From positions 1 through 16,031 of IMG/VR virus record IMGVR_UViG_3300045988_092906: 16,031 bases of DNA. The stretch is one strand, 5' to 3'. The DNA comes from a virus. Positions 1-14,873 of this stretch are shown one piece after another (within the stretch, counting starts at the first letter, position 1; every line of letters begins with the position of its first letter). Position numbers and translations under genes: made by a program. The notes beneath the pieces were generated by a model. That model was not told the origin of the DNA, searched no databases, and worked only from the letters and a program-made list of their open reading frames with translations.

Positions 1-66
1 AAAAGGCTTACGTTATTCCCAATGAGAGCACGACACCCTTTTGATTAAAAAAGCACGAAAAAATAC

Positions 67-95
67 TTGACAAACGAACAAGCGTGTGGTATTAT
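67..95 (+). promoter_or_regulatory. Inward-reading sigma-A-type early promoter in ITR-L
   Basis: TTGACA (67-72), 17-nt spacer, TGgTATTAT (87-95, extended -10). It starts immediately after the ~66-nt segment shared with the buried terminus copy. Confidence 0.65.
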
Positions 96-165
96 AATTA
101 TAGAAACAAGGAAACCTAGTAAATATAAGGAGGGAAAAAAGATACTATGAAAAGGAGGAATAAAA

Positions 166-279
166 ATGAAGATTAAATATGACGAAAAAATATGGGATAG
201 CTTTGGTAAGGAACTTTGTGATATTATGAAGTCTAGCACTGTTGATGGTTTTATGTTAAAAAGGAGGTATAAAAAATGA
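166..279 (+). CDS. Small hypothetical early protein, 37 aa (MKIKYDEKIWDSFGKELCDIMKSSTVDGFMLKRRYKK); below the ORF-track size cutoff
   Basis: RBS AAAGGAGGA lies 7 nt upstream of the ATG at 166. The stop overlaps the next start (ATGA at 276-279), suggesting translational coupling. No recognisable family. Confidence 0.45.
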   Translation: MKIKYDEKIWDSFGKELCDIMKSSTVDGFMLKRRYKK

Positions 280-701
280 ACGAAGAAATTAATAGAGTTA
301 AAGTCGTTGTAATTAATTCTAATACAGGGCACATAGTTAGAAGTGAGGCGTTATACACAGACGAATCCTTATTAACAATAGTGCAGAGGTATAGCACTAA
401 AGATTCTATTGTTACGGCTTCAATAGATAATACTTGTTATTGTTTTTATATTAAAGATGAATTATATATATTTAGTACAAGTATTAGTGTAGAATTAATT
501 GAATTTTTTAAAGATGTGTTAGGGGGTTTATATGATAATGCTAGAGATAGTTTTCATATTCAATGGGGCAGAGTAGCAACATTATGTCAACAAATTAATG
601 ACGTAGACTATAGTAAATATGAGGTTATTTTAAATTCTATAGACAATATATGGGGAACAAGATATTATTCAAGATTTTTAAGGAGAGGTAAAAATGATTA
701 A
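276..701 (+). CDS. Hypothetical early protein, 141 aa (ITR copy 1)
   Basis: ORF with RBS AAAGGAGGT upstream. It overlaps the neighbouring genes at both ends. An identical copy lies at 15331-15756. No family recognised. Confidence 0.7.
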   Translation: MNEEINRVKVVVINSNTGHIVRSEALYTDESLLTIVQRYSTKDSIVTASIDNTCYCFYIKDELYIFSTSISVELIEFFKDVLGGLYDNARDSFHIQWGRVATLCQQINDVDYSKYEVILNSIDNIWGTRYYSRFLRRGKND

Positions 702-1158
702 ATACAGATTACATAATATCACAGATTTTGGGGTAGAAATACACGACTTTCACACTGAAAACTCACTAAACAACTACATAGCCTTATTTGTAGACGAACC
801 CTACTGGGTAGAAAATTTGTATACTAATAAAAACATTTATGTGGGTTTTGATGGAGAAGCCTATACCATTGATACTAAGGGAAATAAAGACTATATAGAG
901 ACATTTCAAAATCATAAAATCGATTCAGATAATGTTTCACGTGAAACATTGCATGAAACTCCTACAGAATGGATAACAAGACAAATACCTACAGAAGAAA
1001 AAGAGACATACACCAAATTAGAAAAAATATCATCTTTCTTAGGGGTCTTATCAGTCATAATCATGGCAACCTTTTTATTATATTTGTTCTTATCTTCTGT
1101 ATCATTTATAGCGGAACATTTCTCAGAGTTTACGTGGAAAGTGTTTAATATTTTATAA
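694..1158 (+). CDS. Hypothetical early protein, 154 aa, with a C-terminal transmembrane anchor (ITR copy 1)
   Basis: RBS AAGGAGAGG upstream and an 8-nt overlap with the previous ORF. There is a hydrophobic stretch ISSFLGVLSVIIMATFLLYLFLSSVSFI near the C-terminus. An identical copy lies at 14874-15338. It contains the 20-bp palindrome at 931-950 in frame (NVSRETL). Confidence 0.7.
   Translation: MIKYRLHNITDFGVEIHDFHTENSLNNYIALFVDEPYWVENLYTNKNIYVGFDGEAYTIDTKGNKDYIETFQNHKIDSDNVSRETLHETPTEWITRQIPTEEKETYTKLEKISSFLGVLSVIIMATFLLYLFLSSVSFIAEHFSEFTWKVFNIL
931..950. repeat. Copy of the conserved palindrome AATGTTTCACGTGAAACATT, inside a coding sequence
   Basis: Perfect 20-bp palindrome. The 18-bp core ATGTTTCACGTGAAACAT is identical to the copies at 8746, 9924, 10104, 11182 and 15083. 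Confidence 0.9.
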
Positions 1159-1170
1159 GGAGGAAAAAAT

Positions 1171-1212
1171 ATGGCAAAATTAACAAATGCGTTATTACGT
1201 TATTCCCAATGA
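1171..1212 (+). pseudogene. Truncated 5' fragment of the AbrB-like gene (MAKLTNALLRY + SQ*), created at the ITR junction
   Basis: The RBS plus the first 11 codons are identical to the start of the 14667-14861 gene. The frame then runs into the buried terminus copy and stops at TGA 1210-1212. Confidence 0.8.
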
Positions 1213-1254
1213 GACCACGACACCCTTTTGATTAAAAAAGCACGAAATAAATAC
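1195..1254 (+). repeat. Internal direct copy of the genome terminus (equals positions 8-66); candidate relic of the ancestral left end
   Basis: Aligned by eye. 1195-1247 equals 8-60 except C1215 vs G28. One extra T at 1248 follows, then AAATAC matches 61-66. Similarity ends where the terminus runs into the TTGACA promoter and the internal copy runs into the terminator. Confidence 0.85.
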
Positions 1255-1281
1255 CCCTCGTTTTTTCGAGGGGTATTTATT
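1246..1281. terminator. Bidirectional intrinsic terminator between the left-ITR operon (+) and the late operon (-)
   Basis: Perfect 15-bp stem AATAAATACCCCTCG / CGAGGGGTATTTATT with a TTTTTT loop. The A/T-rich arm ends give a U-rich tail in both directions. It lies between convergent genes ending at 1158/1212 and 1304. Confidence 0.75.
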
Positions 1282-1303
1282 AAATTTCTGCTACTAAATA
1301 TTG

Positions 1304-1990
1304 TTAGTATGTAATCATGTTATTTAATCTGCACCCAAAATAATTGTAAGGCGTAGAGGCGTTTGTATCATTAAAGACTACGTCACCATTAGTTTTTAGT
1401 CTGAATCCCTCAATTGCTAAGGTGCTTACAGCATTAGATTGGTCAACTACATTTCCAATAAAATCAACGTCTTTTGCAGGTGTAATATTTGGGATATTGA
1501 ATAAAACTCTTCTTGCTGAGCTACCACTTCCACCTAATACGGCGTTAAAAACAATAAGATGTGCTGTTCTATTAACACGGGCAATAACAGAGCCCGAATT
1601 GCCTGTAATTTCTTCCCACAAAGAAATATTATTGTTTAATTGTGCAATACTAGCTTGTGCGTCTTTTGCGTTATCATTTGCAACCGTTGCTGCTGCCTGT
1701 GCTTTTGAAATATTGCTATCTCTAGTTACGTTGCTAGAATTAATAGCGGAGACTGAGGATTGTAAATCGGAAATGTTCTTGCTATTTTGATTGGCTACTG
1801 TTGTTGCCTGTGTTGCTTTGGCTTCTGCGCTACCAGCTGTCTGATTAGCTGTTGTAGCTGTTTCTTGTACTTGATGAATACCTGCATCAATTTTAGACAT
1901 ATCAGAGTTATAATCTCCTAAATATGTCGGCTTGTCAGTACCAATGTACTGACTTAAATCATAGTAAGTTGTTTTGTTTGTTGAACTCAT
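1304..1990 (-). CDS. Tail fibre / receptor-binding protein, 228 aa
   Basis: Last gene of the late operon, with RBS AAGGAGGAG. The N-terminal YYDLSQYIGTDKPTYLGDYNSDMSKID motif is of the kind seen at N-termini of Firmicute phage fibres. An Ala/Gln/Asn/Ser-rich helical stalk is followed by a C-terminal globular part. Confidence 0.55.
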   Translation of the reverse strand: MSSTNKTTYYDLSQYIGTDKPTYLGDYNSDMSKIDAGIHQVQETATTANQTAGSAEAKATQATTVANQNSKNISDLQSSVSAINSSNVTRDSNISKAQAAATVANDNAKDAQASIAQLNNNISLWEEITGNSGSVIARVNRTAHLIVFNAVLGGSGSSARRVLFNIPNITPAKDVDFIGNVVDQSNAVSTLAIEGFRLKTNGDVVFNDTNASTPYNYFGCRLNNMITY

Positions 1991-2010
1991 TTTTGACTCC
2001 TCCTTAATAA

Positions 2011-2841
2011 TTATAATTTTAATGCTGTTTTAGCATTACTATCAAATGTGTAAGCGCTTAACGCTTTAGCTTCAAATCCCGATACTGTCAACAATAAAGC
2101 ATCAAATTCGCTTGTTGTGATAGGGTTGTTAAAGTGCAATTCTGCTAATTGATAGATAACATCTTGATAAAAGACATATTCGCCCGTAAACGGGTTGTTC
2201 ATGTATAAATTACTATCAACTCTAAATCTTTTTGCGCCGTATAAATCAAAATCTGTACAACTTAAAAGTAAATTATCAAACTCTGTGCAAGTTAAATTTA
2301 AAGAATCAAATTCAGTACAAGTTAAAGCATAATATCTTAGATTATCGTACATATCACCTAACGCTTGATTAAGGCTTGTATAATAACCTTTAACAGGGTT
2401 TAAAACTTGCATATTACTTGGAACAAAATTGTTAATATAATCATACAATTTTGCGATAGCAGAATCAATATATTCTCTTGTTTCAGTGTTTAACTGATAA
2501 ACGAGAATGTTTAATGTATTGATTCTACTAATTAAATCTTTTTGAATATTATCAATTTTCTTATCCAGTTCATCATCACGTTTATCCATATCATTTCTGA
2601 TATTTGCTTCTACTTCTGTGATATGTTTATAGATGTCTGCATTAAGACCGTCAACGTATTCTTTTAACTCTTTTACTTTTTTATCGGTGTACTGTTTATA
2701 TGCGTCTGTGAAACCATTAATTGCGTCAATACATTCATTGACTTTGTAATCAATATAGCACAAACATTCATAGTAACTCTGCTTATTGCTATATACACTT
2801 GGAACATCGCAACATATTAACGGTGTTAATTCTTTTGCCAT
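2011..2841 (-). CDS. Tail appendage/fibre protein, 276 aa, with a coiled-coil N-half and Cys-containing decapeptide repeats
   Basis: RBS AAGGAGGTG. It sits after the lower collar gene, as phi29 gp12 does. The N-terminal ~140 aa are charged and heptad-like. The repeats are LTCTEFDSLN/LTCTEFDNLL/LSCTDFDLYG, with a degenerate second block ITTSEFDALL/LTVSGFEAKA/LSAYTFDSNA. Confidence 0.5.
   Translation of the reverse strand: MAKELTPLICCDVPSVYSNKQSYYECLCYIDYKVNECIDAINGFTDAYKQYTDKKVKELKEYVDGLNADIYKHITEVEANIRNDMDKRDDELDKKIDNIQKDLISRINTLNILVYQLNTETREYIDSAIAKLYDYINNFVPSNMQVLNPVKGYYTSLNQALGDMYDNLRYYALTCTEFDSLNLTCTEFDNLLLSCTDFDLYGAKRFRVDSNLYMNNPFTGEYVFYQDVIYQLAELHFNNPITTSEFDALLLTVSGFEAKALSAYTFDSNAKTALKL
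2245..2334 (-). repeat. Three tandem 30-bp imperfect repeats encoding the fibre decapeptide repeats
   Basis: Plus-strand units start with ATCAAA at 2245, 2275 and 2305 (ATCAAAnTCnGTnCAAnTTAAA...). Confidence 0.8.
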
Positions 2842-2859
2842 TATATCACCTCCTTTTTT

Positions 2860-3567
2860 TTACCACACTTTTAGAAACAAATCTCTGCAAGCTTCTACAA
2901 GTTCTTTATTAATATTCTGTATTTGCTCACGATATTCTGCAATAGCTTCACTTGTTGATTTTCCTCTTAATCCTATCTCTTTTGTGTCTCTGTCTCTTTT
3001 GCTGTCTTTGTTGTCGTTTCCTGTATGTTTATTGTTTGCTGTTGTAGTCGTGTTATTGACAGTTTCGCCCCTACTCATAGCACTTGCGTAGTCTTGTGTA
3101 GCTACGGTGACTTGTGGATTGTCACTATCAATATTTTGGTAGTTTTGATTGTTTTTTACCTCGCTGTTTCCTGCATCTGTTGAGTTAGTTGTTGTTTTTT
3201 CATTTCCTTTTTCTGCTTCTGTGAATGTTACATATATATTTGTAAAAGGGTTATCGTTTTGAATTGCATTATACAGTTTTGTATAATATGGCGTCAATTC
3301 ATACATTTTTGCTATAAAAGCAGTTTTCCACATTCCTAGAGTTTCAAAACCAATATAATTATTCCAGTATCTTAACAAGAAATAGGTTTTAAAGGTGTAT
3401 AGGTCTTTTCTATCCTCTGAATAAAAAGGAAAATCAAAGTCAAAAAATTTGCTCTGTGTTTTATCGATTGTTCTTTGAACTGATAAGTCCATGCTCCACA
3501 ATTCCTGTTGCGGTATAAAACTTTCGCAAATGTCTTTTACAGTGGTAGTGTATTTACTCAATTTCAT
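2860..3567 (-). CDS. Lower collar protein (phi29 gp11 position), about 235 aa
   Basis: It lies directly downstream of the portal gene and overlaps it, and its size is similar to gp11. The central region is Asn/Thr-rich. The ORF-track start at 3570 is a GTG inside the RBS-like AGAGGGTG, so I prefer the ATG at 3567; the start remains uncertain. Confidence 0.5.
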   Translation of the reverse strand: MKLSKYTTTVKDICESFIPQQELWSMDLSVQRTIDKTQSKFFDFDFPFYSEDRKDLYTFKTYFLLRYWNNYIGFETLGMWKTAFIAKMYELTPYYTKLYNAIQNDNPFTNIYVTFTEAEKGNEKTTTNSTDAGNSEVKNNQNYQNIDSDNPQVTVATQDYASAMSRGETVNNTTTTANNKHTGNDNKDSKRDRDTKEIGLRGKSTSEAIAEYREQIQNINKELVEACRDLFLKVW

Positions 3568-4453
3568 CACCCTCTTTTCCTTTTTGCATATACTTGTCGG
3601 GGATATACCCGTTTAACATAGTAGGTAATTCACTATTGAAGTCCACCGACACATTAAGTCCCCATAATTTATTGATAGCTTTCGCGCATCTTCTTCTTAA
3701 TGTCAATCCAACATTTCGATTTGCTTCAACCTGTCCATTATTTCCTGCCGTTTCGCCAGTCACAAGGCGTTCACCTTTTTCTACTGGGTTGCTTTCATAC
3801 CCTAAAGAAGTTAATACTTGTGACCATAAATCCCTTAATTCCTGTTCGCATTTGTCTACTATGTAAGGCGCTCCCATGTTTAAGGCTTTAATGTCTTTCA
3901 AATTCAATGAATCTGAAACTTTAAGTACAGGCAAATAGTTATCGTACATTTCGCCTAATATTTCAAAGGACATTTTTTCATTATCAGAAGAAGAAAGTAC
4001 AACAGGTGTACGCTGTGCATACATATTAATACCTTTTGTTTTCCAAGTATTCGCCATAGCGTCTGCATACATTAATGCTTTGTAGTAGTATGGCATGGTT
4101 GAGTAATTGTTCCACAAGATACAACTATTTTCTTTCCCGTATTCTTCAATATAACCATTTGCCGTATAAGCAATTCTATCTTGAGGAATATTGTAAATAT
4201 CGGGCATACCCGAAAGTGTAACATTCATAAAAGCATACCCTGCAATATCATCCTTGATGAATACACCCAAACCACGCCAAAATAATGTTTGTTCAATGTA
4301 CATGGGCAATATTTCTTCGGGTAAGCCACGCCACTGGTATCTGTTTACAAATATATCGAAAATATCATAAAAATAAATAGATTTGATTATTTCAAAATCA
4401 TCTTTCATATTTTTATTTTTACATTTTTCAAAAACTCTTAAAGGGTTTCGCAC
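3554..4453 (-). CDS. Portal / upper collar connector (phi29 gp10-like), 299 aa
   Basis: Blocks match my recollection of phi29 gp10. These are YQWRGLP vs FEWENLP, NMYAQRTPVVL vs NQNAQKTPVLI, GAPYIVDK vs DAPYVVDK, EKGERLVTGE vs EKKERMVTDE, and INKLWGLNVSVDF vs INELYGLNVKVKF. GTG start at 4453 with RBS AAGGTGGTG. Confidence 0.85.
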   Translation of the reverse strand: MRNPLRVFEKCKNKNMKDDFEIIKSIYFYDIFDIFVNRYQWRGLPEEILPMYIEQTLFWRGLGVFIKDDIAGYAFMNVTLSGMPDIYNIPQDRIAYTANGYIEEYGKENSCILWNNYSTMPYYYKALMYADAMANTWKTKGINMYAQRTPVVLSSSDNEKMSFEILGEMYDNYLPVLKVSDSLNLKDIKALNMGAPYIVDKCEQELRDLWSQVLTSLGYESNPVEKGERLVTGETAGNNGQVEANRNVGLTLRRRCAKAINKLWGLNVSVDFNSELPTMLNGYIPDKYMQKGKEGDEIE

Positions 4454-4465
4454 GTTATCACCACC

Positions 4466-6082
4466 TTAATTATTTGACAATCCATAATTCCCTATGTCAT
4501 CAGTATGCCACAAAGTCACACCGTTGTCAAATATATTTCGCAATTTTTTTAATTGGTCTAAATCAATATCGCCTGTAAAACCACAATGTGATGTTTTTAC
4601 ATAATTCCATTGTGAACGAGAACGCAAATACGGTGTTGCAATTTTATTAATCGGATAACCAAATTGTTCGAAAAAACTATCTGCCATTTCAGCAAATTGT
4701 CTTTTGCACGACATTTCATAAAAATCAACACCACACTCTTTAATACCGGTCAACACATTTTCGGATAACGCTTTTCCATGTGTCACTCCTGCATTTCTCG
4801 CTCTGTCTGTCTGATTTGCTAACATTCCAAGAGCGTCCCAAAAAGCGTTCGTTGTTTTTCCTAATCCGTTAAGACCTCCTTGTAAACTTCCCCCAGCCAA
4901 TCCTGCTATTGCTGTTCCTGTTCCTATGGTAGCATCAACCGCTGTGTGAACTTGTGACAGAGCTATAGAACTTTTATTTTGCGCAAGCCATGCCCTGTAC
5001 GTATCAGAAGAAAAGGAACACATAGGAAAAGACGAGTTAATAAGCGCTTCATTCATTAGTCCGTGCCCTAATTCTTCGCGCGTCTTATAGTTTTTAGGCG
5101 CTGTGAGAACTTGTGGAAGTGTTGCAATTGTCCCGTAGCTGTCGAACTCAATCGACTTGTCTTGATTATAACTATATTCATACCTATAAATATGTGTGTT
5201 GCCTTGGTTATTATCAGCAAGACAAAATAACCACGGATAAGAATATAATTTTTTATTCTTCGGTTTATAACCCTCAAACACATTTTCGGATATCTGCATA
5301 CTTGTTATTTTTGGCTTAATTTCTTTTCCACCTAGTGCAAGCGTGCATAATTTTGGTGACATAAATAAACCTATAACAGCGTCTTGCGCTCCTTGGCTAT
5401 TATAATCTTGTAATAGCGTGTTTATTCCTTTTAGTCCATCATCTGTAGTAATATCATAATGGCCGATACTACCCCAACAGTACACTCCATTTTCCACTCT
5501 CCCCTCGAACCAACTTTGTTCCGTTGTACCACGTGTCACAAAAGCGCAACATTCAGTCGGTGTTAAGTCTAGTTTTTTATGCCGTGATACAATTGTCTCA
5601 CCTGTTTCGATATTAACAGGCGTTAAATTTACTCCTATCCCATCAGCACTTCTTGGGATATGATGATACTCTACAAAGCAAGGTTTAATATTCGCATCAT
5701 AAAAGTTATTCTGAAAAACATCAAGCGAAAAATTAATGCGTGTTGTTTTTTCAGACAACCATTCTATTGAATCGATAAAACAAAATACCCACTCGTTAGA
5801 AATGCCTGTATTCTGAAAAGCTAAATAATTGAGATTAAGTGCTTTCATTTCTGTGAACGGTACGCGAATGTCATAATTTCCTATTCGGATAGGCGCAAGA
5901 TGTGATAAATCAACCCCGTTGATATGTTTACGATAAGACTCTAAATGATTTAATAAGTCCTCTTTTGAGTTGTATAGTCTAACATGCTCGTATTCGTCCG
6001 ACCATGGCACTCCACTGTACAATCTTAATTTTGTTTCGGGGTTGCGTGGTGCAACCCCTCCCTGTGTTGGTAAATTTATCAT
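4466..6082 (-). CDS. Tail knob / distal tube protein (phi29 gp9-like), 538 aa
   Basis: The C-terminus FFEQFGYPINKIATPYLRSRSQWNYVKTSHCGFTGDIDLDQLKKLRNIFDNGVTLWHTDDIGNY closely parallels my recollection of gp9 ([37 protein letters not shown]...IFDNGITLWHTDNIGNY). The Gly/Ala-rich hydrophobic loop TGTAIAGLAGGSLQGGLNGLG resembles the gp9 membrane-active loop. Confidence 0.85.
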   Translation of the reverse strand: MINLPTQGGVAPRNPETKLRLYSGVPWSDEYEHVRLYNSKEDLLNHLESYRKHINGVDLSHLAPIRIGNYDIRVPFTEMKALNLNYLAFQNTGISNEWVFCFIDSIEWLSEKTTRINFSLDVFQNNFYDANIKPCFVEYHHIPRSADGIGVNLTPVNIETGETIVSRHKKLDLTPTECCAFVTRGTTEQSWFEGRVENGVYCWGSIGHYDITTDDGLKGINTLLQDYNSQGAQDAVIGLFMSPKLCTLALGGKEIKPKITSMQISENVFEGYKPKNKKLYSYPWLFCLADNNQGNTHIYRYEYSYNQDKSIEFDSYGTIATLPQVLTAPKNYKTREELGHGLMNEALINSSFPMCSFSSDTYRAWLAQNKSSIALSQVHTAVDATIGTGTAIAGLAGGSLQGGLNGLGKTTNAFWDALGMLANQTDRARNAGVTHGKALSENVLTGIKECGVDFYEMSCKRQFAEMADSFFEQFGYPINKIATPYLRSRSQWNYVKTSHCGFTGDIDLDQLKKLRNIFDNGVTLWHTDDIGNYGLSNN

Positions 6083-6103
6083 AGATATAAACCTCCATTA
6101 AAT

Positions 6104-7372
6104 TTACGCTTTTGTGAAACTTGCTGTTTTTGTGATAGTCTCGTTCGGTCTATAAATAGCTTTCAAGATAATAGTTCCTGTTTCGTCCGCTCCTGTATGA
6201 AGTAAATGTGTCCCTGGGATAACATAAGTCTTAGCTGACGTTGCACCGCTATCAACTTCCAATGTCACCAAATTCTGATGATATGTTCCCGTGCTACCTT
6301 TAACAGTAACTTCTACTTCCTGTGTCTGTCCTGCTGTGTATGTTCCTGCTGTTACTGACAAGGTTGGCGTTTCAACCACTGTGTCTGTGGTAAATACTCG
6401 AATTGGGTAGAACGGACTAGCACTGACCATTTCCACCTGTGTATAGAAGTAGTTCCATGAAAGCACATTTGCCAGTCTCTGGTCTGTCATTTCTTTGAAC
6501 TGGTCACGCACATTGAAGAATCGGACATCACACAAGACACCCTGAATAGCTGTGTTAGCGAATTTATCTACAATCACAGTCTGTACTTCCACTTCTGCTC
6601 TGTCCAAATGGAAAGCGTAAGCTAAAGCGTCAACACTGACCTGTGCGTTTACATTTGGGGTCGTTATCCAAATGAGATTGGACGGCATAGCGTGAGACGT
6701 TGCTCCTGCTGTGTTGTTTTCCGGTAATGGGAAACCAAACTCACCAACAGCTCTTTTTACTTCAATCAATAATTTTTTCGCTGTCGCTTCATCAACAACC
6801 GCGTCAACAGTCACTGCCGGAAGTACCTCTTTTTCATAACCAACATTAATCAAATCACGCATAGCAAGATACTCGTCCCAGTTCGCGGCTGTGATGGCAC
6901 TCTCCATTTTTGCCATAATCATGTCACGGATTCCATACTCGCTTGTAAAAGCTTTTCTCAAGTTGTCGTATGTCACAGTGACAGGGTACTGGATTTCAAG
7001 GTTTACATTGTGAAACACTGACATAATGTAGGATTGGTACTGCTGAAAGGCATACTTAAAGTCTGCCTGTGAGTCATACACGTGACCCTTGCACATATTT
7101 ACATATGTTTCCTCGTGTGTCTCCCCGTAACGCATTGGCTCTTTCTTGAAACGTGCTAACGGATTTCTCCACGCAATACTGTCTACGGTCTGCATACCAA
7201 TACGGTTAATTAATGACGGAACAATTTCGTTCCGAACAGGGGCAAAATTCAGAATGTTATCATAGACAGCCTGTAAATTGTCTGAGACTTCCACAGGCAA
7301 GTGGTTCTGAACCTCGAAAGAAAGCTCCTGTTTGACTGCTTTTAAAATGTTTTTATTTGTTGCGTCTGCCAT
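6104..7372 (-). CDS. Major capsid protein (phi29 gp8-like) with a C-terminal Ig-like domain, 422 aa
   Basis: [34 protein letters not shown] parallels gp8 [42 protein letters not shown] parallels LYWNYYYHV. The C-terminal ~90 aa are a Thr/Val/Gly-rich beta-type segment like the gp8 BIG2 domain. It follows the scaffold gene. Confidence 0.85.
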   Translation of the reverse strand: [422 protein letters not shown]

Positions 7373-7387
7373 TTGTTAAAACCTCCC

Positions 7388-7669
7388 TTATTCTGTTTTA
7401 CCATCAAAGTCCAAATCTTCGACAGTAATTTTTTCTTCTTTTTCGTCTTTCTTTTCTTCTCCGTCTGCATTAGTGGCGGATTCTTTCATGCGCTCTTTAA
7501 AGCGTTTTTTGTACTCACTTTCTAATTTCATATACTTGTCTTTCCATTCGCTGTCCGTTTCTCCACTTCTTTCGCTATCATAATTCTGTAAGAACTCAAT
7601 AGCGTCTCCGTGCTCCTCAACGTCTGCTACAGCGTCAATTAATTCGTTTAAAGCTTCATTAAAATCCAT
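7388..7669 (-). CDS. Scaffolding protein (phi29 gp7-like), 93 aa
   Basis: Small, acidic and helical, immediately upstream of the capsid gene. The C-terminal KITVEDLDFDGK resembles gp7 TITIEDLEAK. RBS AGGAGGAAT. Confidence 0.7.
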   Translation of the reverse strand: MDFNEALNELIDAVADVEEHGDAIEFLQNYDSERSGETDSEWKDKYMKLESEYKKRFKERMKESATNADGEEKKDEKEEKITVEDLDFDGKTE

Positions 7670-7711
7670 TCAGATTCCTCCTTTTTATTTATTACCCTTT
7701 TTACAGTTTCT

Positions 7712-7740
7712 ATTATATCACCATGGAAAGAAAAAGTAAA
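7712..7740 (-). promoter_or_regulatory. Candidate promoter for the structural (late) operon
   Basis: On the minus strand: TTTACT (7740-7735), 17-nt spacer, TGaTATAAT (7720-7712). It overlaps the tail-lysin stop codon, 43 nt upstream of the scaffold start. Confidence 0.45.
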
Positions 7741-8725
7741 GTGGCATTTTTCTTTTTCTTGAATGTGGGTGTATTGGGTACGGTGATAATGTTTGTAAGT
7801 AGGCATACCATTTTAACGCATTCTTTTTTCTTTCCTCTTCTTTTTCAACGCCTGCACGCTCGAAATTTTTTAAAAACACGGACGCGAGATAATCGGGTTC
7901 TTTTGTGGACTTTCGAAACTCTTCCCATGATATCGGATATTTCGTGGTCTCTATCCACTGTCCACTACTTGCTGTTTCTTCATCAAGCCAAACGCATTGA
8001 TAATACCCGTCTGTGATATCATAACCATGAGCGTTCGCCCAGTCTGTATAGTTTGTTGCGGGTGTCCATTGCACAAGACCATATCCACCATCATAGTTTC
8101 CCTCTTTTAATGACTGCCACAATCCAGGGTTGATATTAGATTCTATCTCTATATTCCCCAACATTCCTGCAATTGCATTTAATGTAAAATCTTTAAAAAA
8201 CATCGTGCTATAAAAAACATAGGCGTTATTTTTCATTTCATCTTCTGTAAGATATCTATTTCCATGTATCCATTCAAGGGGCATTCCTGCACTATCACCG
8301 TACCGATATAGTTTTGCCCATGCAGACGGTTTGGAAACGTAAGTATTAATGCTAACTTGTTCGGGCAAAGGATAGCGCCCACTATGTGCCCCCATAGTGA
8401 TACCACCCTGTCCTGCTCCTTCCCCTTGATACACCATTTCCGTATGACCACTTCTCCAAACGATATCCCCAGCCTGCCACGCTTCATTAATATCAATTTC
8501 TTTAAATCCTGCTTGTAATAGATACCCCTCTTCTGTTCTTGTTGTAAACCAAGGATTAACTGCAAAAAATCCGCCCTCTGTCAACGCTTTTGAAATAAAA
8601 GAGCTACAATCATAATAAGTAATACCGTTTACGGTCTGTCCGTACCGATATGCTTGTGAGTAACCGATATTTGGCGCATTACATGCATTTATCGCCCATT
8701 GGTATGATATATTAATATTTGGCAT
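7718..8725 (-). CDS. Tail-associated peptidoglycan hydrolase, 335 aa: N-terminal NlpC/P60- or CHAP-type peptidase plus a C-terminal phi29 gp13-type lysozyme domain
   Basis: The C-half [51 protein letters not shown] matches my recollection of the gp13 N-domain ([51 protein letters not shown]). The N-half has [12 protein letters not shown] ... [14 protein letters not shown], a Cys/His peptidase signature. Confidence 0.8.
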   Translation of the reverse strand: [335 protein letters not shown]

Positions 8726-8740
8726 TTCTTGTCACCTCAC

Positions 8741-8782
8741 AAAAAATGTTTCACGTGAAACATTTGTATTCACGTGAAACAC
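8741..8782 (-). terminator. Paired palindrome copies (full 8744-8765, degenerate 8769-8781) forming a hairpin plus U-tract after the endolysin gene
   Basis: Minus-strand RNA is GUGUUUCACGUG-13 nt-CACGUGAAACAU followed by UUUUU. That gives a 12-bp stem with one G-U pair. Alternatively it is two adjacent protein-binding sites. It lies 8 nt after the endolysin stop and directly before the tail-lysin RBS. Confidence 0.4.
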
Positions 8783-8789
8783 CTCATAA

Positions 8790-9641
8790 TTATTTTGTCG
8801 AATTTTTTTCGTACGTTTCTACGTCTGAACAAACCGCCTGCAAAATGCGTAAATCCCAAGGCGCTATATTATTGAATTCATAACAAGGTATATTGCGACC
8901 TGTACTGTCTAAATGAATCTTTTTTAAGATTTCAAGACACGCACCATCTTTAATGAGTCTGACTTTATCCCCATTGAACCAATACCAGTTACCACTTTCC
9001 GTATCTTTAAATAATGCATTCATACAATTAATACCCCCAATCATATTATTTATGATGTCATTAAATTCGCTTTTATATGTATAGTCTTTATACACATGGT
9101 TTACATCACATCTCCCGTTGATACCATCAACTCGCCCGTTACTGCTATACTGCCAAATATCAACGCCATTCATGCCTAATGAGTTTGAATATCGAGCAAT
9201 CCACAAATCATACCCCCATGTTTCGCCGATGTATTTCTCAAACCATGATTTACTGGCATAAATTCCTGCTTTATACCCATTAGTGTGCATCGCATCGCAA
9301 AAGCGCTTTGCGTTGTATTTTGCGACATATTGAGTGCCTTTTTCTTCGCTGTCAAAAAATACTGGTAGGGTAGGGTTATGTCCGTTTAGCAATCTAAGAC
9401 AGTGGTTAATCTCGCCCTCAATATTTGCTTTTGTTTTTGCGTATGAATAGAAATACACGCCATACGCTATAGACAGTCTTTCACATTCACGAACATTTCT
9501 TTCCCATTGTTCATCATCTTGTGATGTCTTATCTTGTCCATATCCGCATCTGATTATCACATAATCAACAGCGTTCTTTAACTTTTCAAAATCAACAACA
9601 CCATTGTGATAAGAAATATCAACAGCCTTTTTTACACACAT
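8790..9641 (-). CDS. Endolysin, GH25 muramidase N-domain plus an unassigned C-terminal (probably wall-binding) domain, 283 aa
   Basis: The N-terminus is typical of GH25 lysozymes: VDISYHNGVVDFEKLKNAVDYVIIRCGYG ... FDSEE ... LWIARY ... WQYSS. It follows the holin gene with a 1-nt TAATG overlap. Confidence 0.75.
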   Translation of the reverse strand: MCVKKAVDISYHNGVVDFEKLKNAVDYVIIRCGYGQDKTSQDDEQWERNVRECERLSIAYGVYFYSYAKTKANIEGEINHCLRLLNGHNPTLPVFFDSEEKGTQYVAKYNAKRFCDAMHTNGYKAGIYASKSWFEKYIGETWGYDLWIARYSNSLGMNGVDIWQYSSNGRVDGINGRCDVNHVYKDYTYKSEFNDIINNMIGGINCMNALFKDTESGNWYWFNGDKVRLIKDGACLEILKKIHLDSTGRNIPCYEFNNIAPWDLRILQAVCSDVETYEKNSTK

Positions 9642-9868
9642 TACTCTCCCTCCTTTTTCTGCTCAAATGTATCACAAATACGTTGAAGCGCAAGCGTGTT
9701 ATTGTTCAACGCTTCTGTAATATCTGCCATTTCCTGCTTATGTGCTTCATTCAGCTTGTCTAAGCGTTCATCGTTTTTATCTTCGCGATATTTCACGTAC
9801 CACATTGAAGCTATCGCAACAACTGTAGGAATGCCTAACGTGTTAATCATTGTCATGATTTCCTGCAT
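9641..9868 (-). CDS. Holin-like protein (BhlA/UviB-like architecture), 75 aa from the ATG at 9868
   Basis: One N-terminal TM segment (LGIPTVVAIASMWYV) is followed by a charged coiled-coil tail. It sits directly upstream of the endolysin and is coupled to it. RBS AAAGGAGGTGG precedes the ATG at 9868. The longer track ORF (to 9910) would run through the candidate promoter and has no RBS. Confidence 0.55.
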   Translation of the reverse strand: MQEIMTMINTLGIPTVVAIASMWYVKYREDKNDERLDKLNEAHKQEMADITEALNNNTLALQRICDTFEQKKEGE

Positions 9869-9888
9869 GATACCACCTCCTTTTTTAT

Positions 9889-9917
9889 ATAATAACACAT
9901 ATAAACACATTTGTAAA
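9889..9917 (-). promoter_or_regulatory. Candidate promoter of the lysis cassette
   Basis: On the minus strand: TTTACA (9917-9912), 17-nt spacer, TGtTATTAT (9897-9889). The holin RBS begins about 10 nt downstream of the -10, and the palindrome array abuts the -35. Confidence 0.5.
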
Positions 9918-9918
9918 T

Positions 9919-9956
9919 AAAAAATGTTTCACGTGAAACATTTTCACGTGAAACAT
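9919..9956 (-). terminator. Paired overlapping palindrome copies (24-bp perfect palindrome 9921-9944 plus partial 9942-9956) forming a hairpin plus U-tract
   Basis: Minus-strand RNA is AUGUUUCACGUG-AAAAUGUUU-CACGUGAAACAU followed by UUUUUAUUU. That gives a 12-bp perfect stem. It is positioned to end the transcript from the 10076-10104 promoter, and could equally be a tandem operator upstream of the holin promoter. Confidence 0.45.
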
Positions 9957-10069
9957 AATGCACGTTACAAAATAATCAAATCAAAGGGGACGCAAAACCA
10001 AAAATTGATATCAGACTACTTGTCTATGTGCGTGTATATCAATTACAATGTTCGTATTATTTTGGGTGC
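9957..10069 (-). ncRNA. Candidate structured non-coding RNA (pRNA-like?) next to the packaging ATPase gene
   Basis: A consensus promoter lies immediately upstream, and there is no RBS-preceded ORF. The predicted 5' end pairs with the 3' end. Plus-strand 10066-10070 GTGCA pairs with 9959-9963 TGCAC, and 10056-10064 ATTATTTTG pairs with 9968-9976 CAAAATAAT. There is an internal 9-bp hairpin (10003-10011 with 10036-10044). A terminator-like element follows at 9919-9956. Confidence 0.4.
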
Positions 10070-10075
10070 AATATT

Positions 10076-10104
10076 ATTATATCAAAGATATCTTAAATTG
10101 TCAA
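10076..10104 (-). promoter_or_regulatory. Consensus sigma-A-type promoter driving the ORF-free region
   Basis: On the minus strand: TTGACA (10104-10099), exactly 17 nt, TGaTATAAT (10084-10076). This is the best consensus match in the window. The -35 overlaps the palindrome at 10103-10122 by 2 nt. Confidence 0.7.
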
Positions 10105-10122
10105 TGTTTCACGTGAAACATT
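10103..10122. repeat. Copy of the conserved palindrome AATGTTTCACGTGAAACATT
   Basis: Perfect 20-bp palindrome. It overlaps the ATPase stop codon (10121-10123) on one side and the -35 of the downstream promoter on the other. Confidence 0.9.
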
Positions 10123-11167
10123 AAAAAGATATAACATCAAATATCATATCCTTACATTCTAAATTTTCAAATAATAGTAATCCTCTATTAAAATATTCGC
10201 GTAACATTGCTACAATATAATGCGTTGAGTTTACACGAATTGCCGTATTATCTATTACGTCGTTTTTTGTAAAACATATTCGTGTAGGGAAACTTTCGTC
10301 TGCCCCTGTTGCTATATACATAAAAGTGTCATATTTTCTTGCGTTATACATTTTCTCGTTAAATCTGATTGTACAAATATAACGTGATTGTCCTGTTGGT
10401 TTTCCAATTAAACAATCATTATCATTTAGATATTTATTTTCGCTCGCATATTCGTTATAAGATGCGCCTTGAAATGCTCGTGCAATGCCACTTTCCTTAT
10501 AGGCTGTTGAAGCATTTTCATTATAGGTTCGCTCAAATACCCAACCATCACCGCGCAATATTTTAGTGTTATATTTTAACATTTTATTGATGCCAAATAC
10601 ACTATAGTATGGGTTTAACAACGAGACGGTATTTGAAGCCATATATAGCATAACTCTACGATGTTGCTTCCCGTGTCCTGCACTAATAGTCGTAAGCAAA
10701 GATAAAAGCTTATTTACCTCATTCGTTAAATATACGTTATCCTCATCTTGATATTCGTCAAAAAATACAGAACGAATATTTACGAACAACCCACGCATTT
10801 TTTTATATTTTCTCGCAACGGATAAGGCTAAACAATATCCGCATGGCTCTTCGTTTAGAAATAGTTGAATCAATGAACCATTCATCAAACTCTTTTCAGT
10901 CATAACATACCCGTCAAATTTTTCAGATATATCGCCAAAATATGTGTCGGCACAATTCTTCATATCAACTACATTTCTATATAGATATATAAATTGGTTT
11001 TCGGGTCTATATTTATCTTTCAAAAAATCGGACACTTGTCTGCACTTGATAGAATAACTTTTGCCTGCCGTTCTATTCCCGTCAACAATATAAATATCGG
11101 GAATATTCCCATTTTTATCTTTTAAAGTTAATAATCTATCACAATGATAATAGCCATCATTTTTCAT
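10121..11167 (-). CDS. DNA packaging (encapsidation) ATPase, phi29 gp16-like, 348 aa from the ATG at 11167
   Basis: Walker A is GNRTAGKSY (gp16 GARGIGKSY) and Walker B is VFFDEY (gp16 IVFDEF). QFIYLYR parallels QFIYVRR, LTNEVNKLLSLL parallels IPNEVSALLNLM, and ASNTVSLLNPYY parallels LSNAVSVVNPYF. RBS TAGGAGGTG lies upstream of the ATG at 11167. Confidence 0.85.
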   Translation of the reverse strand: MKNDGYYHCDRLLTLKDKNGNIPDIYIVDGNRTAGKSYSIKCRQVSDFLKDKYRPENQFIYLYRNVVDMKNCADTYFGDISEKFDGYVMTEKSLMNGSLIQLFLNEEPCGYCLALSVARKYKKMRGLFVNIRSVFFDEYQDEDNVYLTNEVNKLLSLLTTISAGHGKQHRRVMLYMASNTVSLLNPYYSVFGINKMLKYNTKILRGDGWVFERTYNENASTAYKESGIARAFQGASYNEYASENKYLNDNDCLIGKPTGQSRYICTIRFNEKMYNARKYDTFMYIATGADESFPTRICFTKNDVIDNTAIRVNSTHYIVAMLREYFNRGLLLFENLECKDMIFDVISF

Positions 11168-11180
11168 TTTAACACCTCCT

Positions 11181-11200
11181 AATGTTTCACGTGAAACATT
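11181..11200. repeat. Copy of the conserved palindrome AATGTTTCACGTGAAACATT, abutting the ATPase RBS
   Basis: Perfect 20-bp palindrome located between the terminator (11208-11236) and AGGAGGTG (11179-11172). Confidence 0.9.
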
Positions 11201-11207
11201 TTTTATT

Positions 11208-11236
11208 AAAAAGTAGGGGTAGCATATTGCCACCCC
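11208..11236 (-). terminator. Intrinsic terminator after the p5-like gene
   Basis: Minus-strand RNA is GGGGUGGCA-AUA-UGCUACCCC (9-bp stem including one G-U pair) followed by UACUUUUU. On the plus strand the same position is an A-C mismatch, so the hairpin favours the minus strand. Confidence 0.55.
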
Positions 11237-11276
11237 CATTAAGAAATAGAGAATAAAACTTTCTCGCGTCGTTATA

Positions 11277-11627
11277 TTATAAAGTTGATACGTCCAAGGT
11301 GCAATTAATATAATCGCGTCCTGCTTTTGTCTTTCCGCTGATTTTAATGATAGAAAACTTTTCACCCTCCATCACATTTTCAATATCTTTCAATGACTGT
11401 CTAAATGTAGCAGACTGACCCGAATATACTTTTTTCTCTGGTGTGATAATACTCACAATTTCCTGCACATCGCCCTTATCCTTAATATCATCAAAGATAA
11501 TATATCCATCGACTGGGATTGATGCCCCGTCCTCAATGTTTTTTAAAGGCTCAATATCTGGTGCTGTAGTCATAAGATACTTCTCAACCTTTGTAAACTC
11601 TCTGCTCATTTCTTTAATTTCTACCAT
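11277..11627 (-). CDS. Putative single-stranded DNA-binding protein (phi29 p5-like), 116 aa
   Basis: RBS CAGGAGGTA. The size and position are as expected for p5. The pattern similarity to my recollection of p5 is loose: IVSIITPEKKVYSGQSATF vs VTTIFAADGSLYSAISKTV, and FSIIKISGKTKAGRDYINCTL vs FKVKVVQGTSSKGNVFFSLQL. This needs an HMM check. Confidence 0.4.
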   Translation of the reverse strand: MVEIKEMSREFTKVEKYLMTTAPDIEPLKNIEDGASIPVDGYIIFDDIKDKGDVQEIVSIITPEKKVYSGQSATFRQSLKDIENVMEGEKFSIIKISGKTKAGRDYINCTLDVSTL

Positions 11628-11651
11628 AATAATTTACCTCCTGTTTTCCTG

Positions 11652-11951
11652 CTAATCTTCCTTTTTCATTTCCTGTAATTCTGCTTCGGTGACAATTTTC
11701 TCGCTCTTAACATCTGAATTTAATAAGAACTGTTCATCTGTCATGACACGTTTTTCCAGTTTAAACTTGATATCAAGAATGGAAACAATATCGCCTTTGT
11801 GCTGTTTTTCAATCAAGATTTCTGCCTTTTCCCTTGTCTTGCAATTTGCTATTTTCTCATCAAAGCAATCTTTCTTGATTTCGCCTGTCTCCTTGTCCTT
11901 GTAAATTCTTTCAACAGATACTTCTGCCGTTACTAATGTCCTCGTAAACAT
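11652..11951 (-). CDS. Putative dsDNA-binding / histone-like early protein (phi29 p6-like), 99 aa
   Basis: RBS GGAGGAAAAAAG. It is small with an acidic C-terminal tail and precedes the p5-like gene, as gene 6 precedes gene 5 in phi29. Any sequence resemblance is weak (LVTAEVSVERI vs ITKTTVNVAKM). Confidence 0.3.
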   Translation of the reverse strand: MFTRTLVTAEVSVERIYKDKETGEIKKDCFDEKIANCKTREKAEILIEKQHKGDIVSILDIKFKLEKRVMTDEQFLLNSDVKSEKIVTEAELQEMKKED

Positions 11952-12022
11952 CTTTTTTCCTCCTTTTTTCTGCTTTCTTTGAGTGTGAATTGCAATGTAA
12001 TATGTTTATTTATTACACTATT

Positions 12023-12051
12023 ATAATAACACAACGACTAAATATAGTCAA
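12023..12051 (-). promoter_or_regulatory. Candidate promoter for the p6-like/p5-like gene pair
   Basis: On the minus strand: TTGACT (12051-12046), 17-nt spacer, TGtTATTAT (12031-12023). It starts 3 nt after the polymerase stop codon, in a 103-bp intergenic gap. Confidence 0.6.
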
Positions 12052-12054
12052 GTA

Positions 12055-13941
12055 TTATATTATAATTTTTTTATCTTTTTGTTCATGGATATTAAAGTCT
12101 TTATTTCTTAATACAATACCACCTTTCACGCGCTCTGCTTTCAAATTACAAGTTTCCATACTAAGACCAGTGGATAATTCTGAGATATCTCTCCCATCTT
12201 CCACAAACTTTCTTTTCGCTTGACTACTCATTCCACAAGCTTTTATATCAAGATAAGGTTCACAAGGCACATGATTCTCTTCAACAATATGTTCTGCATA
12301 AGTCTTTTGCCTTTCATAATAAGCAAAATCAAATGTACTTTCACATTTCCAACAACAAAAATTAGTAGGGTGTTCCACAACTTTATTCGCTTTATCAAGA
12401 CCTATCAAATGAATAGAATCAGTGTCGGCATAGCAAAATCGGTCATAATTAGCCATTGCGTGACGAATTGTAAAATTCATGGCATATGATGTAATAGCAC
12501 TCCCGATAGGGATATACCCTACTTTCTTATTATGCTCTTCATGTAGAATAAATCTAATAATTCCATCTTCATCAAGATAAGGCTCTTTATACGAGGAATT
12601 ATCAGACATAGCAAATTTGCCATAAAGATTATTTAAAAAGAGTTTAGCTTTTTGTCTTTTAAAGCCTTTTGATGTTCTTTTTTCTTCTCCGTATTTATTT
12701 ATATAATCGTCAAAAAACCCTTGTCTCGCGTAGAACCACACGTAATCATATATAACCAAATCAAAAATATCATAAGTTTCTTGAAATAATTCCCAATCAG
12801 TACAAGTCATTGTTATAGTAATATTAGTATCATGCATTTGTCCATCAATATCACGATAATATCTATAATATTCACCCTTATATCTGACATTAGAACTATA
12901 TAAATTTTCATTCGCCTTATATAATGCGTTATGTCTAATATGTAACCATGGAAATGCCCCTGCTTTTAACTGAAATCTACAATTGAAGCGGATAAAAAAA
13001 TATTTATTAGTAGAGCTTATAAGTTCATTAGGTGGCGCTCCCCTATGATATTCGCCATGTCCAAATGGGTATTTATTCCCACTAATACTATGCATCATAG
13101 ACGGGTACAAAGAGTTTACATCATATACCAAACCATTGCTCACCACCATGTGTGCATATCTTGGATTGACATAGCACCAACCACCGTGATATGATTTATG
13201 AATATAATCCCACTGATTCCACGATTCTGTAATAGATTCGTCAAGATAATCTTCTCTAATATCGGGGAATAACTTATCATATTGTTTACCATCATAAAAA
13301 CCTTTAAATTCTGATAAACAACATGAGCCTATGGTTAATTTATCATGCTTTTCATTAAACATCATTTCTAATGCTTCTTTTAAAACTAATACGTCATTTT
13401 CAATATATTTCTTTTCATTTTCTGATATCTCACAATAAGCATATCTTTCGCCCTCATAATTCATATCAAGCTTTTGGTGCTTCGTCCCAAATGATTTCCC
13501 GATATTTTTTAATGATGATGGCATAAGCTTTAAAGAATTTCGGATTTCTAAAAAAGTCTTATTCCATTTTAATTTAAGCCAATACCACGACCCCATATCT
13601 GATATACATGTTTGAAATTCTTTTGACCTCATTTCCTTGTCTTTACAATGTACCCATGTCCACCCCTCTTTTAACAGAAAATCTACTATAAAAGAACCGT
13701 CAAAAGCTAAGTTATGAAAATATAATATATTATTACCTTTCATAGTTAAAAATCTATTTAAAAAATCTCTTATCGAATGTGTGATTGTTACTGTCTCAGT
13801 ATCATCATATAAAGCCACGTCAGCGCCCGACCAAACTTCTGTAGTATCTTGTTTTTTATGATTTTCTTGCTCTACTTTTTCGCCCCATACTGTTGTCTCA
13901 AAATCACAAGCCCAAAAAGTGATATTCTTTTTACGTGGCAT
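12055..13941 (-). CDS. Protein-primed family-B DNA polymerase (phi29 gp2-like), 628 aa
   Basis: All signature motifs are visible: ExoI ACDFETT, ExoII HNLAFDGSFI, SLKLMP (S/TLx2h), ExoIII YIENDVLVL, motif A VYDVNSLYPS, motif B KAKLFLNNLYGKF, motif C YADTDSIHL and KxY RQKTYAE. It is colinear with phi29 DNAP as I recall it. I prefer the ATG at 13941 (RBS AGAGGTG 6 nt upstream) over the GTG at 13950, which lies within that RBS. Confidence 0.95.
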   Translation of the reverse strand: MPRKKNITFWACDFETTVWGEKVEQENHKKQDTTEVWSGADVALYDDTETVTITHSIRDFLNRFLTMKGNNILYFHNLAFDGSFIVDFLLKEGWTWVHCKDKEMRSKEFQTCISDMGSWYWLKLKWNKTFLEIRNSLKLMPSSLKNIGKSFGTKHQKLDMNYEGERYAYCEISENEKKYIENDVLVLKEALEMMFNEKHDKLTIGSCCLSEFKGFYDGKQYDKLFPDIREDYLDESITESWNQWDYIHKSYHGGWCYVNPRYAHMVVSNGLVYDVNSLYPSMMHSISGNKYPFGHGEYHRGAPPNELISSTNKYFFIRFNCRFQLKAGAFPWLHIRHNALYKANENLYSSNVRYKGEYYRYYRDIDGQMHDTNITITMTCTDWELFQETYDIFDLVIYDYVWFYARQGFFDDYINKYGEEKRTSKGFKRQKAKLFLNNLYGKFAMSDNSSYKEPYLDEDGIIRFILHEEHNKKVGYIPIGSAITSYAMNFTIRHAMANYDRFCYADTDSIHLIGLDKANKVVEHPTNFCCWKCESTFDFAYYERQKTYAEHIVEENHVPCEPYLDIKACGMSSQAKRKFVEDGRDISELSTGLSMETCNLKAERVKGGIVLRNKDFNIHEQKDKKIII

Positions 13942-13955
13942 TATAATCACCTCTT

Positions 13956-14663
13956 TTATTCTTTTTCAATAACAATATCCTGTTCTTGAAGAAATTCTTG
14001 AAAATCTTCTGTAGTGCTAAGCACACCCATTCTGTGCAAAATATTCCAAAAGACAGCATCAACTGTAGCTTTATCCATATATGGTTCGGTTGGAAATGCT
14101 TCGGGTTCTTTAGAATATGTATACGCAAATAACGCTCTTTCTTTATCTGATGCATTGTATAATAAAGCGTCTGTTTTTTCACGTAAATAATCAGCTGTTT
14201 TTGGTGCGAAACTTTCTAAAGAATCATACCATGAATCAATAATAGCTTCATAATCTAATACAGGTGTTGCTATATTAACTCTAATACCTTTCTTTAGTAT
14301 CATCTTTAATTCCTTTAATCCATAATCATGAATTCTTGCGTATTCCTGTTCTTGTGGTGTTAGTTTTATAAATATTCTATTTCTTTCAAGTGCTTTTTTA
14401 CGCCCGTACTCTTTAGCGGTTATTGCCTCGCCTGTAAGCATATCAATAACTGTCGCGTTTTTTCGTATTTCTTTAGCTGTCTGTTTTTTCAATCTTTCAA
14501 TAGAAGCTTGTGTTGGATTTTTAACACGCTTTATTATCTTTACTTGTACACCTTGTTTTTGCTGATTTCTAACACGTGCTAAATACTTATTATATTCTTT
14601 ATTGTATTGCTGTTGCAAAATAGAGGCTTTTGTGTGTTTCTTTTTTATTCGCTTATTTGCCAT
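13956..14663 (-). CDS. Candidate terminal protein (replication primer), 235 aa
   Basis: It lies immediately upstream of the polymerase gene, as in phi29 (gene 3 then gene 2), and its size is close to phi29 TP (266 aa). The N-terminus is strongly basic (MANKRIKKKHTK...RVRNQQKQGVQVKIIKRVK). The genome has ITRs and a protein-primed-type polymerase. I did not recognise direct sequence similarity. Confidence 0.55.
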   Translation of the reverse strand: MANKRIKKKHTKASILQQQYNKEYNKYLARVRNQQKQGVQVKIIKRVKNPTQASIERLKKQTAKEIRKNATVIDMLTGEAITAKEYGRKKALERNRIFIKLTPQEQEYARIHDYGLKELKMILKKGIRVNIATPVLDYEAIIDSWYDSLESFAPKTADYLREKTDALLYNASDKERALFAYTYSKEPEAFPTEPYMDKATVDAVFWNILHRMGVLSTTEDFQEFLQEQDIVIEKE

Positions 14664-14666
14664 GGT

Positions 14667-14861
14667 TTAATTGCCCTCCTTTTGTACTTTTCTTAACAAT
14701 AAGCCATGTGGAACACGGGTATACTCAATATAATCCCCCGCATGAATATCTAAGTCTTTGATTGCTTCTTTTGGGAGCATGACACGGGCGGTATAACCAC
14801 CCGAGCCACTTTTCGTGAACATTACTTTATAACGTAATAACGCATTTGTTAATTTTGCCAT
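14667..14861 (-). CDS. AbrB/SpoVT/MazE-type (looped-hinge helix) DNA-binding protein, 64 aa
   Basis: The pattern ARVMLPKEAIKDLDIHAGDYIEYTRVPHGLLLRKV fits the SpoVT-AbrB domain signature (xRVxIPKExRxxLgIxxGDxvEi...). RBS AAGGAGGAAAAAATATG. The first 33 nt lie inside the ITR. Confidence 0.6.
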   Translation of the reverse strand: MAKLTNALLRYKVMFTKSGSGGYTARVMLPKEAIKDLDIHAGDYIEYTRVPHGLLLRKVQKEGN

Positions 14862-14873
14862 ATTTTTTCCTCC

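Follow-up and report, generated by a model that had tools for sequence, protein, structure and literature searches.

A buried genome terminus and a 9 nt microhomology point to recent expansion of the inverted terminal repeats in a φ29-like gut podovirus

The inverted terminal repeats (ITRs) of the phage genome analysed here, a 16,031 bp stretch of DNA referred to below as the window, have very probably grown from ~66 bp to 1,203 bp by the copying of the right end onto the left. The lengthening is recent in the lineage of this phage: what appears to be the old left terminus is still legible just inside the new repeat, and a sister phage at ~98% identity retains the unexpanded end. The resulting natural before/after pair allows the old end, the acceptor site, a 9 nt overlap and the loss of 7 nt to be read directly.

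A complete φ29-like genome with long terminal repeats

The gene set of the window and its closest isolates identify it as the real, complete linear genome of a φ29-like, protein-primed gut podovirus, and its size falls within the range of the contigs of its relatives (maximum 16,058 bp). All long open reading frames lie on the minus strand with the exception of the copies in the left arm, the early genes running inward from the right end and the late genes stopping at a hairpin close to the left end. The protein-primed family-B DNA polymerase (12055–13950, minus strand; PF03175, E = 4.3e-50) shares 33% identity with the φ29 polymerase over 98% of its length and 46% with that of Clostridium phage CS229P. 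Among isolates, the Clostridium symbiosum phages CS229P1-3 (~16 kb) come closest, human-faecal contigs also standing at ~46% polymerase identity, and a megablast search of GenBank phages with the whole window returned no match. CS229P1-3 were considered as comparators for the junction described below and dropped as too distant, given a polymerase identity of only 46%. Profile searches identified a φ29-type major capsid protein, connector, tail knob and gp16 packaging ATPase (PF25622, PF05352, PF20934 and PF05894, all well over cut-offs) together with two lysins. The reading frame directly upstream of the polymerase (13956–14663, minus strand) matched no family and is designated the putative terminal protein by this position only; the order of the two genes agrees with that of φ29. 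Despite the φ29-type connector and gp16 ATPase, no prohead RNA (pRNA) was detected, an Rfam search of the whole window yielding no family at gathering score; a divergent pRNA is possible.

The two ITR arms (1–1203 and 14829–16031) are 100% complementary, an identity which is in itself uninformative because short-read assemblers collapse such repeats. The right arm, on the minus strand, sits within a continuous early operon that runs on into an intact AbrB/MazE/SpoVT-type gene (14667–14861, minus strand; PF04014, E = 7.3e-6), the putative terminal protein and the polymerase, and we regard it as the source copy; the left arm would be the newly added one. The outermost 66 nt (1–66) constitute the active terminus, a family-wide minimal ITR and the presumed replication origin. 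An early promoter is predicted immediately inside it (67–95; TTGACA, a 17 nt spacer and TG-TATTAT), with an extended -10 element and 11 of 12 consensus positions matched, and is conserved in relatives straight after the 66 nt ITR. It is followed on the plus strand of the left arm by three duplicated early ORFs supported by gene calls, encoding 37 aa (166–279; called in contigs L149 and L164, no Pfam match), 141 aa (276–701) and 154 aa (694–1158), the last of which includes a copy of a 20 nt palindrome. Both ends of the genome thus now carry the early promoter, these three ORFs and one operator-like palindrome copy each.

The buried terminus and its junction

At the inner edge of the left arm lies what we read as a buried copy of positions 8–66 of the ancestral left terminus (1195–1254, direct orientation). 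The computed alignment spans 60 columns with one mismatch (C1215 versus G28) and one gap, corresponding to an extra T at 1248, and the stretch up to 1250 matches 8–63 at 96% identity without gaps. In 16 kb, chance falls far short of accounting for a copy of 59–60 nt at 97% identity. The copy begins with the 9-mer TTACGTTAT (1195–1203), which is common to the last 9 nt of the ITR, to the start of the buried copy and to positions 8–16 of the terminus, and which in the right arm (14829–14837) forms codons 9–11 of the AbrB-like gene. The flanking bases differ on both sides (A1194 versus C7; T1204 versus A in the right arm) and the overlap is therefore exactly 9 nt. Reading across the junction creates a 13-codon stub of the AbrB-like gene (1171–1212, plus strand; MAKLTNALLRYSQ followed by a stop), the first 11 codons of which are identical to those of the intact gene (14861–14829). 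The preliminary description of this DNA, made from its letters and translations alone, had already located the repeat, the junction and the stub, and recomputation reproduced all of its coordinates, the single substitution and extra T of the buried copy, and the dual membership and exact length of the 9-mer.

When 2 million junctions joining the terminus to the early arm were drawn at random in a simulation, only ~2e-4 of them had an ambiguous overlap of at least 9 nt, which argues that the event was mediated by microhomology. A further 11 microhomologies of at least 9 nt exist between the 66 nt terminus and the remainder of the genome, so that the site of the junction is not one that could have been uniquely predicted.

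Termini of related phages

Relatives were recovered from IMG/VR (~60, at 88–94% polymerase identity) and 75 full contigs were rebuilt. The ITRs of ~60 relatives measure 55–156 bp and fall into a short class that stops at ~62–66 nt, just ahead of the -35 box, and a longer class that takes in the promoter. Their contig ends carry the terminal core GGCTT[T/A]CGTTATTCCCAATGA, and in two contigs an Illumina adapter is joined directly to AGAGGGCTT..., marking the physical end of the DNA. When all of IMG/VR was scanned for this core, 42 of 42 matches were terminal, within ~65 nt of a contig end, and the 85+ contigs of relatives contained no internal copy of the motif. The strictly terminal placement of the motif in relatives argues that 1195–1254 derives from a terminus and is not an internal element resembling one. 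Neither a second buried terminus nor a second microhomology junction was found in these relatives, and an exact scan of IMG/VR for the terminus variant of the window gave 0 matches.

The extreme ends of complete termini begin with a reiterated dinucleotide, the first four bases being AGAG in 22 contigs, ATAT in four, GTGT in one and AAAA in the window (1–4 and 16028–16031; among the relatives, such ends are seen in, e.g., L004, L016 and L054). The preservation of this XYXY arrangement in four variants suggests that protein-primed initiation may occur at position 3 and be followed by a 2 nt jump-back. The otherwise identical collapsed ITR contig L164, which stops exactly at window position 1203, has AGAG (its positions 59–62) where the window has AAAA, and the extreme end of the window lineage is accordingly not settled. 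In several public records (L150, 1–138; L164, 1–58; ends of IMG 082053, 086993, 117093 and 013789), Illumina/Nextera adapter or foreign sequence runs straight into the phage terminus; such adapters help to place true ends, and yet they represent contamination of those records.

A sister phage with the unexpanded end

Homologues of the last late gene (1304–1990, minus strand, 228 aa), used as an anchor for finding sister genomes, led to a 15,123 bp ENA scaffold designated L162. This scaffold, which holds the late end, and L150, which holds the early end, represent one phage from two samples, being 100% identical over an overlap of 7.3 kb. The sister is 97.5–97.8% identical to the window (97.8% over 10.8 kb for L162), and the alignment of L162 with the window stops exactly at window position 1195. 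Its late end reads AGAGGGC-TTACGTTAT-TCCCAATGA...AATAC, passes at once into the hairpin CCCCTCG-TTTTT-CGAGGGG and then into the same last gene as that of the window, and the buried copy is collinear with this exposed terminus. The L162 contig ends 114 nt past the last late gene, and position 1188 of the window lies 116 nt past it. The sister has an ITR of 66 nt, both arms of which finish ...AATAC.

The same succession of terminus, hairpin and last gene is found in L161 and in L204 (14,856 bp, 93% identity). The acceptor 9-mer TTACGTTAT is kept in the AbrB-like gene of all 10 relatives examined for it and therefore predates the event. A scan of JGI metagenomes for the hairpin retrieved only an unrelated contig, L160, the terminator of which is coincidentally identical. 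The preliminary description had predicted an ancestor with an ITR of ~66 bp, a left end at present position 1188, a length of about 14,844 bp and a terminus followed directly by the late terminator, and had proposed a search for relatives retaining such a left end; L162/L150 is an extant phage of this form, and the placement of the terminator recurs in L161 and L204.

Proposed course of the expansion

The ancestor very probably had the layout usual in the family: a genome of ~14,844 bp (the length of the window minus 1–1187) with a 66 bp ITR at each end, the early promoter and early genes reading inward from the right, and a left terminus abutting the hairpin of the late terminator. Onto this old left end, 1,194 nt of the right end were copied in inverted form, the join falling within TTACGTTAT and thereby uniting terminus positions 8–16 with codons 9–11 of the AbrB-like gene. 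Only the outermost 7 nt of the old end were lost in this process, and positions 8–66 were buried at 1195–1254 beside the 13-codon stub. The left arm has the properties expected of such an expansion: it is a copy of the opposite arm that ends within a gene and leaves a truncated duplicate, it retains the former terminus at its inner boundary, and close relatives are unexpanded at the homologous position.

As for how the arm was copied, we consider strand displacement followed by 3'-end pairing and extension the probable route. The free 3' end of the minus strand (...ATAACGTAAGCCTTTT-3'), exposed during strand-displacement replication, would pair through ATAACGTAA with TTACGTTAT on a minus-sense single strand, which could be a different displaced copy or the strand itself after folding back. 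The 7 nt flap would then be cut by the 3'-5' exonuclease of the polymerase, or the switch would have taken place 7 nt short of the template end. Synthesis up to the template's 5' terminus would give the left arm exactly as observed, in a panhandle of 1,203 bp whose origin is normal and capped by terminal protein and which replication could convert into a duplex. Polymerases of the φ29 type possess the exonuclease and strand-displacement activities needed, and the product's strand polarity fits a panhandle route of the adenovirus type. The specifically intramolecular fold-back put forward in the preliminary description is plausible, and has the same product as other microhomology-mediated routes.

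Alternative explanations

A long perfect repeat at a contig end invites the suspicion of an assembly or library artefact, with an inverted amplification chimera or an ITR mis-join having been added to a true end at 1188. Collapse of a repeat would make the arms perfectly identical, multiple-displacement amplification is known to yield inverted chimeras at microhomologies, and the contigs of some relatives do have junk fused to their ends. The junction is, however, present in at least three other assemblies produced by two assemblers at three k values (SPAdes, MEGAHIT k127 and MEGAHIT k119; the donors are not necessarily different), one of them with a SNP relative to the window. ERZ1745023 NODE_6672 (ENA, SPAdes) equals window 1–3931 exactly, from the terminal base through the junction; ERZ920071 k127_50971 (ENA, MEGAHIT) matches 1077–14955 apart from a single SNP and thus comprises the core flanked on either side by exactly 127 nt of arm; and ERZ27260280 k119_60694 (MEGAHIT, two samples) is an ITR-only contig that stops exactly at 1203. 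Contigs of the form 'core + k' and contigs consisting of the ITR node alone are the shapes expected of a true inverted repeat longer than k, and the MEGAHIT contigs fit them. An overlap of 9 nt is moreover unable to cause a k-mer mis-join at k = 119–127, and a 66 nt ITR in a de Bruijn graph has no incoming edge for an assembler to cross. Since the junction is shared by other assemblies, we consider an artefact very improbable. Less credible still is the reading of 1195–1254 as a conserved internal regulatory or packaging element that merely resembles the terminus. Its inner 9 nt do form half of the terminator stem, yet the motif is confined to contig ends in IMG/VR and Rfam gives it no match. 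Both readings had been raised in the preliminary description as ones that would overturn it, and neither was borne out. It is likewise highly unlikely that the long ITR is ancestral and that the sister and the other relatives were shortened by terminal deletion. Contraction of ITRs is possible in principle, and embedded ITRs can regenerate ends in adenovirus, but a buried terminus requires an earlier terminus at that place, the stub duplicates, in truncated form, a gene that is intact at the other end, and the buried copy is without the first 7 nt found on the exposed ends of relatives. Short ITRs are also shared by ~60 relatives at 86–98% identity, the long form occurring in this one lineage only. 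On these sequence comparisons, the polarity from short to long reads clearly.

A product identical to that of replicative copying could instead have formed by breakage and joining, with two genome copies, or a genome and a fragment, united head-to-head at the microhomology. By microhomology-mediated end joining or illegitimate recombination, a left end resected by 7 nt would have been joined to a break in the AbrB-like gene. A 9 nt microhomology is typical of such joins and the ends of the relatives show much modular recombination, but for this course the terminal protein would have to be detached from the 5' end, and a double-strand break would have to coincide precisely with the 9-mer. Copying from a displaced strand would use routine intermediates, as known from φ29 and adenovirus, namely a displaced strand whose 3' end is free and a polymerase with exonuclease activity. 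Neither consideration is decisive; we regard joining of broken ends as a somewhat unlikely origin of the arm and favour its replicative copying through 3'-end pairing.

The terminator hairpin and the two differences in the buried copy

The palindromic terminator hairpin (1246–1281; 15 pairs in a terminator scan) folds on both strands, with energies of -26.5 and -25.5 kcal/mol (z ~ -7 to -8), and the left half of its stem (1246–1254) overlaps the inner 9 nt of the buried 66 nt ITR. The hairpin now faces predicted convergent transcription from the duplicated early promoter; since the left-arm early copy would read into this palindrome, the late genes are probably insulated from it.

The two differences between the buried copy and the present terminus were taken in the preliminary description as the mark of a relic that is no longer corrected by homogenisation between the ends. 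This is unproven. The two arms of the sister L162/L150 themselves differ at 3 of 66 positions, so that the differences seen in the window could predate burial, and the extra T1248 extends the terminator stem from 12 to 15 bp (-19.9 to -23.2 kcal/mol). The stem of L162 has only 12 bp, and L161 and L204 attain 15 bp through a complementary A-to-T change on the 3' arm. Lengthening of the stem by different changes looks like a compensatory pattern, which would point to selection on the terminator rather than to neutral decay.

Comparison with other systems

Adenoviruses share protein-primed, strand-displacement replication with the window. In the adenovirus panhandle model, the two ends of a displaced strand pair with each other and the 5' arm serves as template for the 3' end, which makes both ends identical. 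In contrast, pairing in the window would have involved an internal 9 nt site in place of the two ITRs, and its outcome was growth of the ITR by 1,137 bp and not repair. Laboratory variants of adenovirus exist in which the sequence of one end has been duplicated at the other by illegitimate events; here the duplication is found in a natural, circulating phage lineage of which an unexpanded sister is still extant. Terminal transpositions and ITR expansion-contraction in poxviruses, in which inverted end duplication changes ITR length and the dosage of terminal genes, are alike in outcome in that one end is duplicated in inverted form at the other. Poxviruses differ in having hairpin ends and no protein priming, and the sequence of the receiving end is usually deleted.

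The terminal inverted repeats (TIRs) of protein-capped linear replicons in Streptomyces likewise change length when one arm is copied from the other (PMC5869714, refs 8-9 therein). In such arm replacement a double-strand break comes first, the homologous repeats involved are long (e.g. 1.7 kb, >99%) and the old arm is deleted (PMC5869714). Copying of the opposite arm is thus common to both systems, whereas in the window the old distal arm was not deleted (7 nt were lost and 59 of 66 positions of the old terminus kept) and the shared segment is exactly 9 nt, with no long homologous repeat.

The window shares its set of virion and replication genes, and the possession of ITRs at both ends, with φ29-like phages in general. 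ITRs of a few hundred bp occur in the Cp-1-type and lactococcal relatives of φ29. Those of the Bacillus φ29 group measure 6–16 bp (PMC6266182). At 1,203 bp, with three complete genes, the ITR of the window is unusually long for such phages. Our literature search yielded nothing directly relevant on microhomology-mediated ITR expansion in protein-primed phages, nor any φ29-like phage described as having its ancestral terminus buried in the genome. As reconstructed from these genomes, additive, microhomology-mediated expansion with the unexpanded sister still extant would represent a novel form of end duplication.

Implications for genome architecture

The growth and identity of ITRs in φ29-like phages, tectiviruses, adenoviruses, linear plasmids and polintons have so far mostly been inferred from laboratory adenovirus constructs. 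The window and its sister offer a concrete, testable substrate for the fold-back/template-switch model. They indicate that a single step can add whole genes and a promoter to an ITR at a cost of only 7 nt, a possible route for duplicating early genes or relocating them between genome ends. As assemblers split such genomes into 'core + k' and 'ITR' contigs, long ITRs are probably under-reported in viromes.

We tentatively raise the possibility that ITR expansion of this kind has repeatedly shaped genome architecture in the family rather than leaving a single scar. If so, each event would form a second, inward early operon, and later loss or divergence of one of the copies would move genes between ends, yielding the layout of φ29 itself with early genes at both ends. 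Hints in this direction come from other relatives. Inward-reading early-type genes occur at the late end of IMG 100370 (L055+L136, late end 1–760), IMG 14963_380 (L145) and L163 (10688–11207), in the first two of which they follow an ITR-borne promoter. IMG 100370 carries its homologue of the 154 aa ITR gene at the late end only, its early end passing from the promoter straight to the AbrB-like gene. Five further contigs, IMG 029659 (L005+L100), 079988 (L048+L119), 038604 (L041+L121), 052618 (L052+L075) and 104790 (L009+L139), have exact inverted-repeat ends of 73–119 nt that come from the internal early region and stop at an RBS or gene boundary. The lengths of 99 and 119 nt among them are typical MEGAHIT k values, which suggests that these contigs may be the 'core + k' of further long-ITR genomes; none of the five contains a buried terminus. 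Taken together, the late-end-only homologues of the 154 aa gene (IMG 100370 and 14963_380), the inward ORF of L163 and the five inverted-end contigs suggest that expansion may have recurred.

Other features of the genome

The C-terminal part of the last late gene (1304–1800) has no counterpart in ~75 IMG/VR relatives that are otherwise ~80% identical, and homologues of its protein fall into discrete identity classes (~81–96%, ~56–62% and ~39–50%). In these comparisons the region behaves like an exchangeable receptor-binding module. The neighbouring 276 aa late gene (2011–2841) contains three 30 nt tandem repeats at 73–77% identity (2245–2334). The perfect 20 nt palindrome mentioned above, AATGTTTCACGTGAAACATT, occurs six times in the window. 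Four copies (8745–8764, 9923–9942, 10103–10122 and 11181–11200) apparently lie between middle and late genes, and the 154 aa ORF of each ITR arm contains one (931–950 and 15082–15101), a single copy having been doubled through the ITR expansion. The palindrome resembles the operator of a dimeric regulator and is also found in the relatives L089, L124 and IMG 100370.
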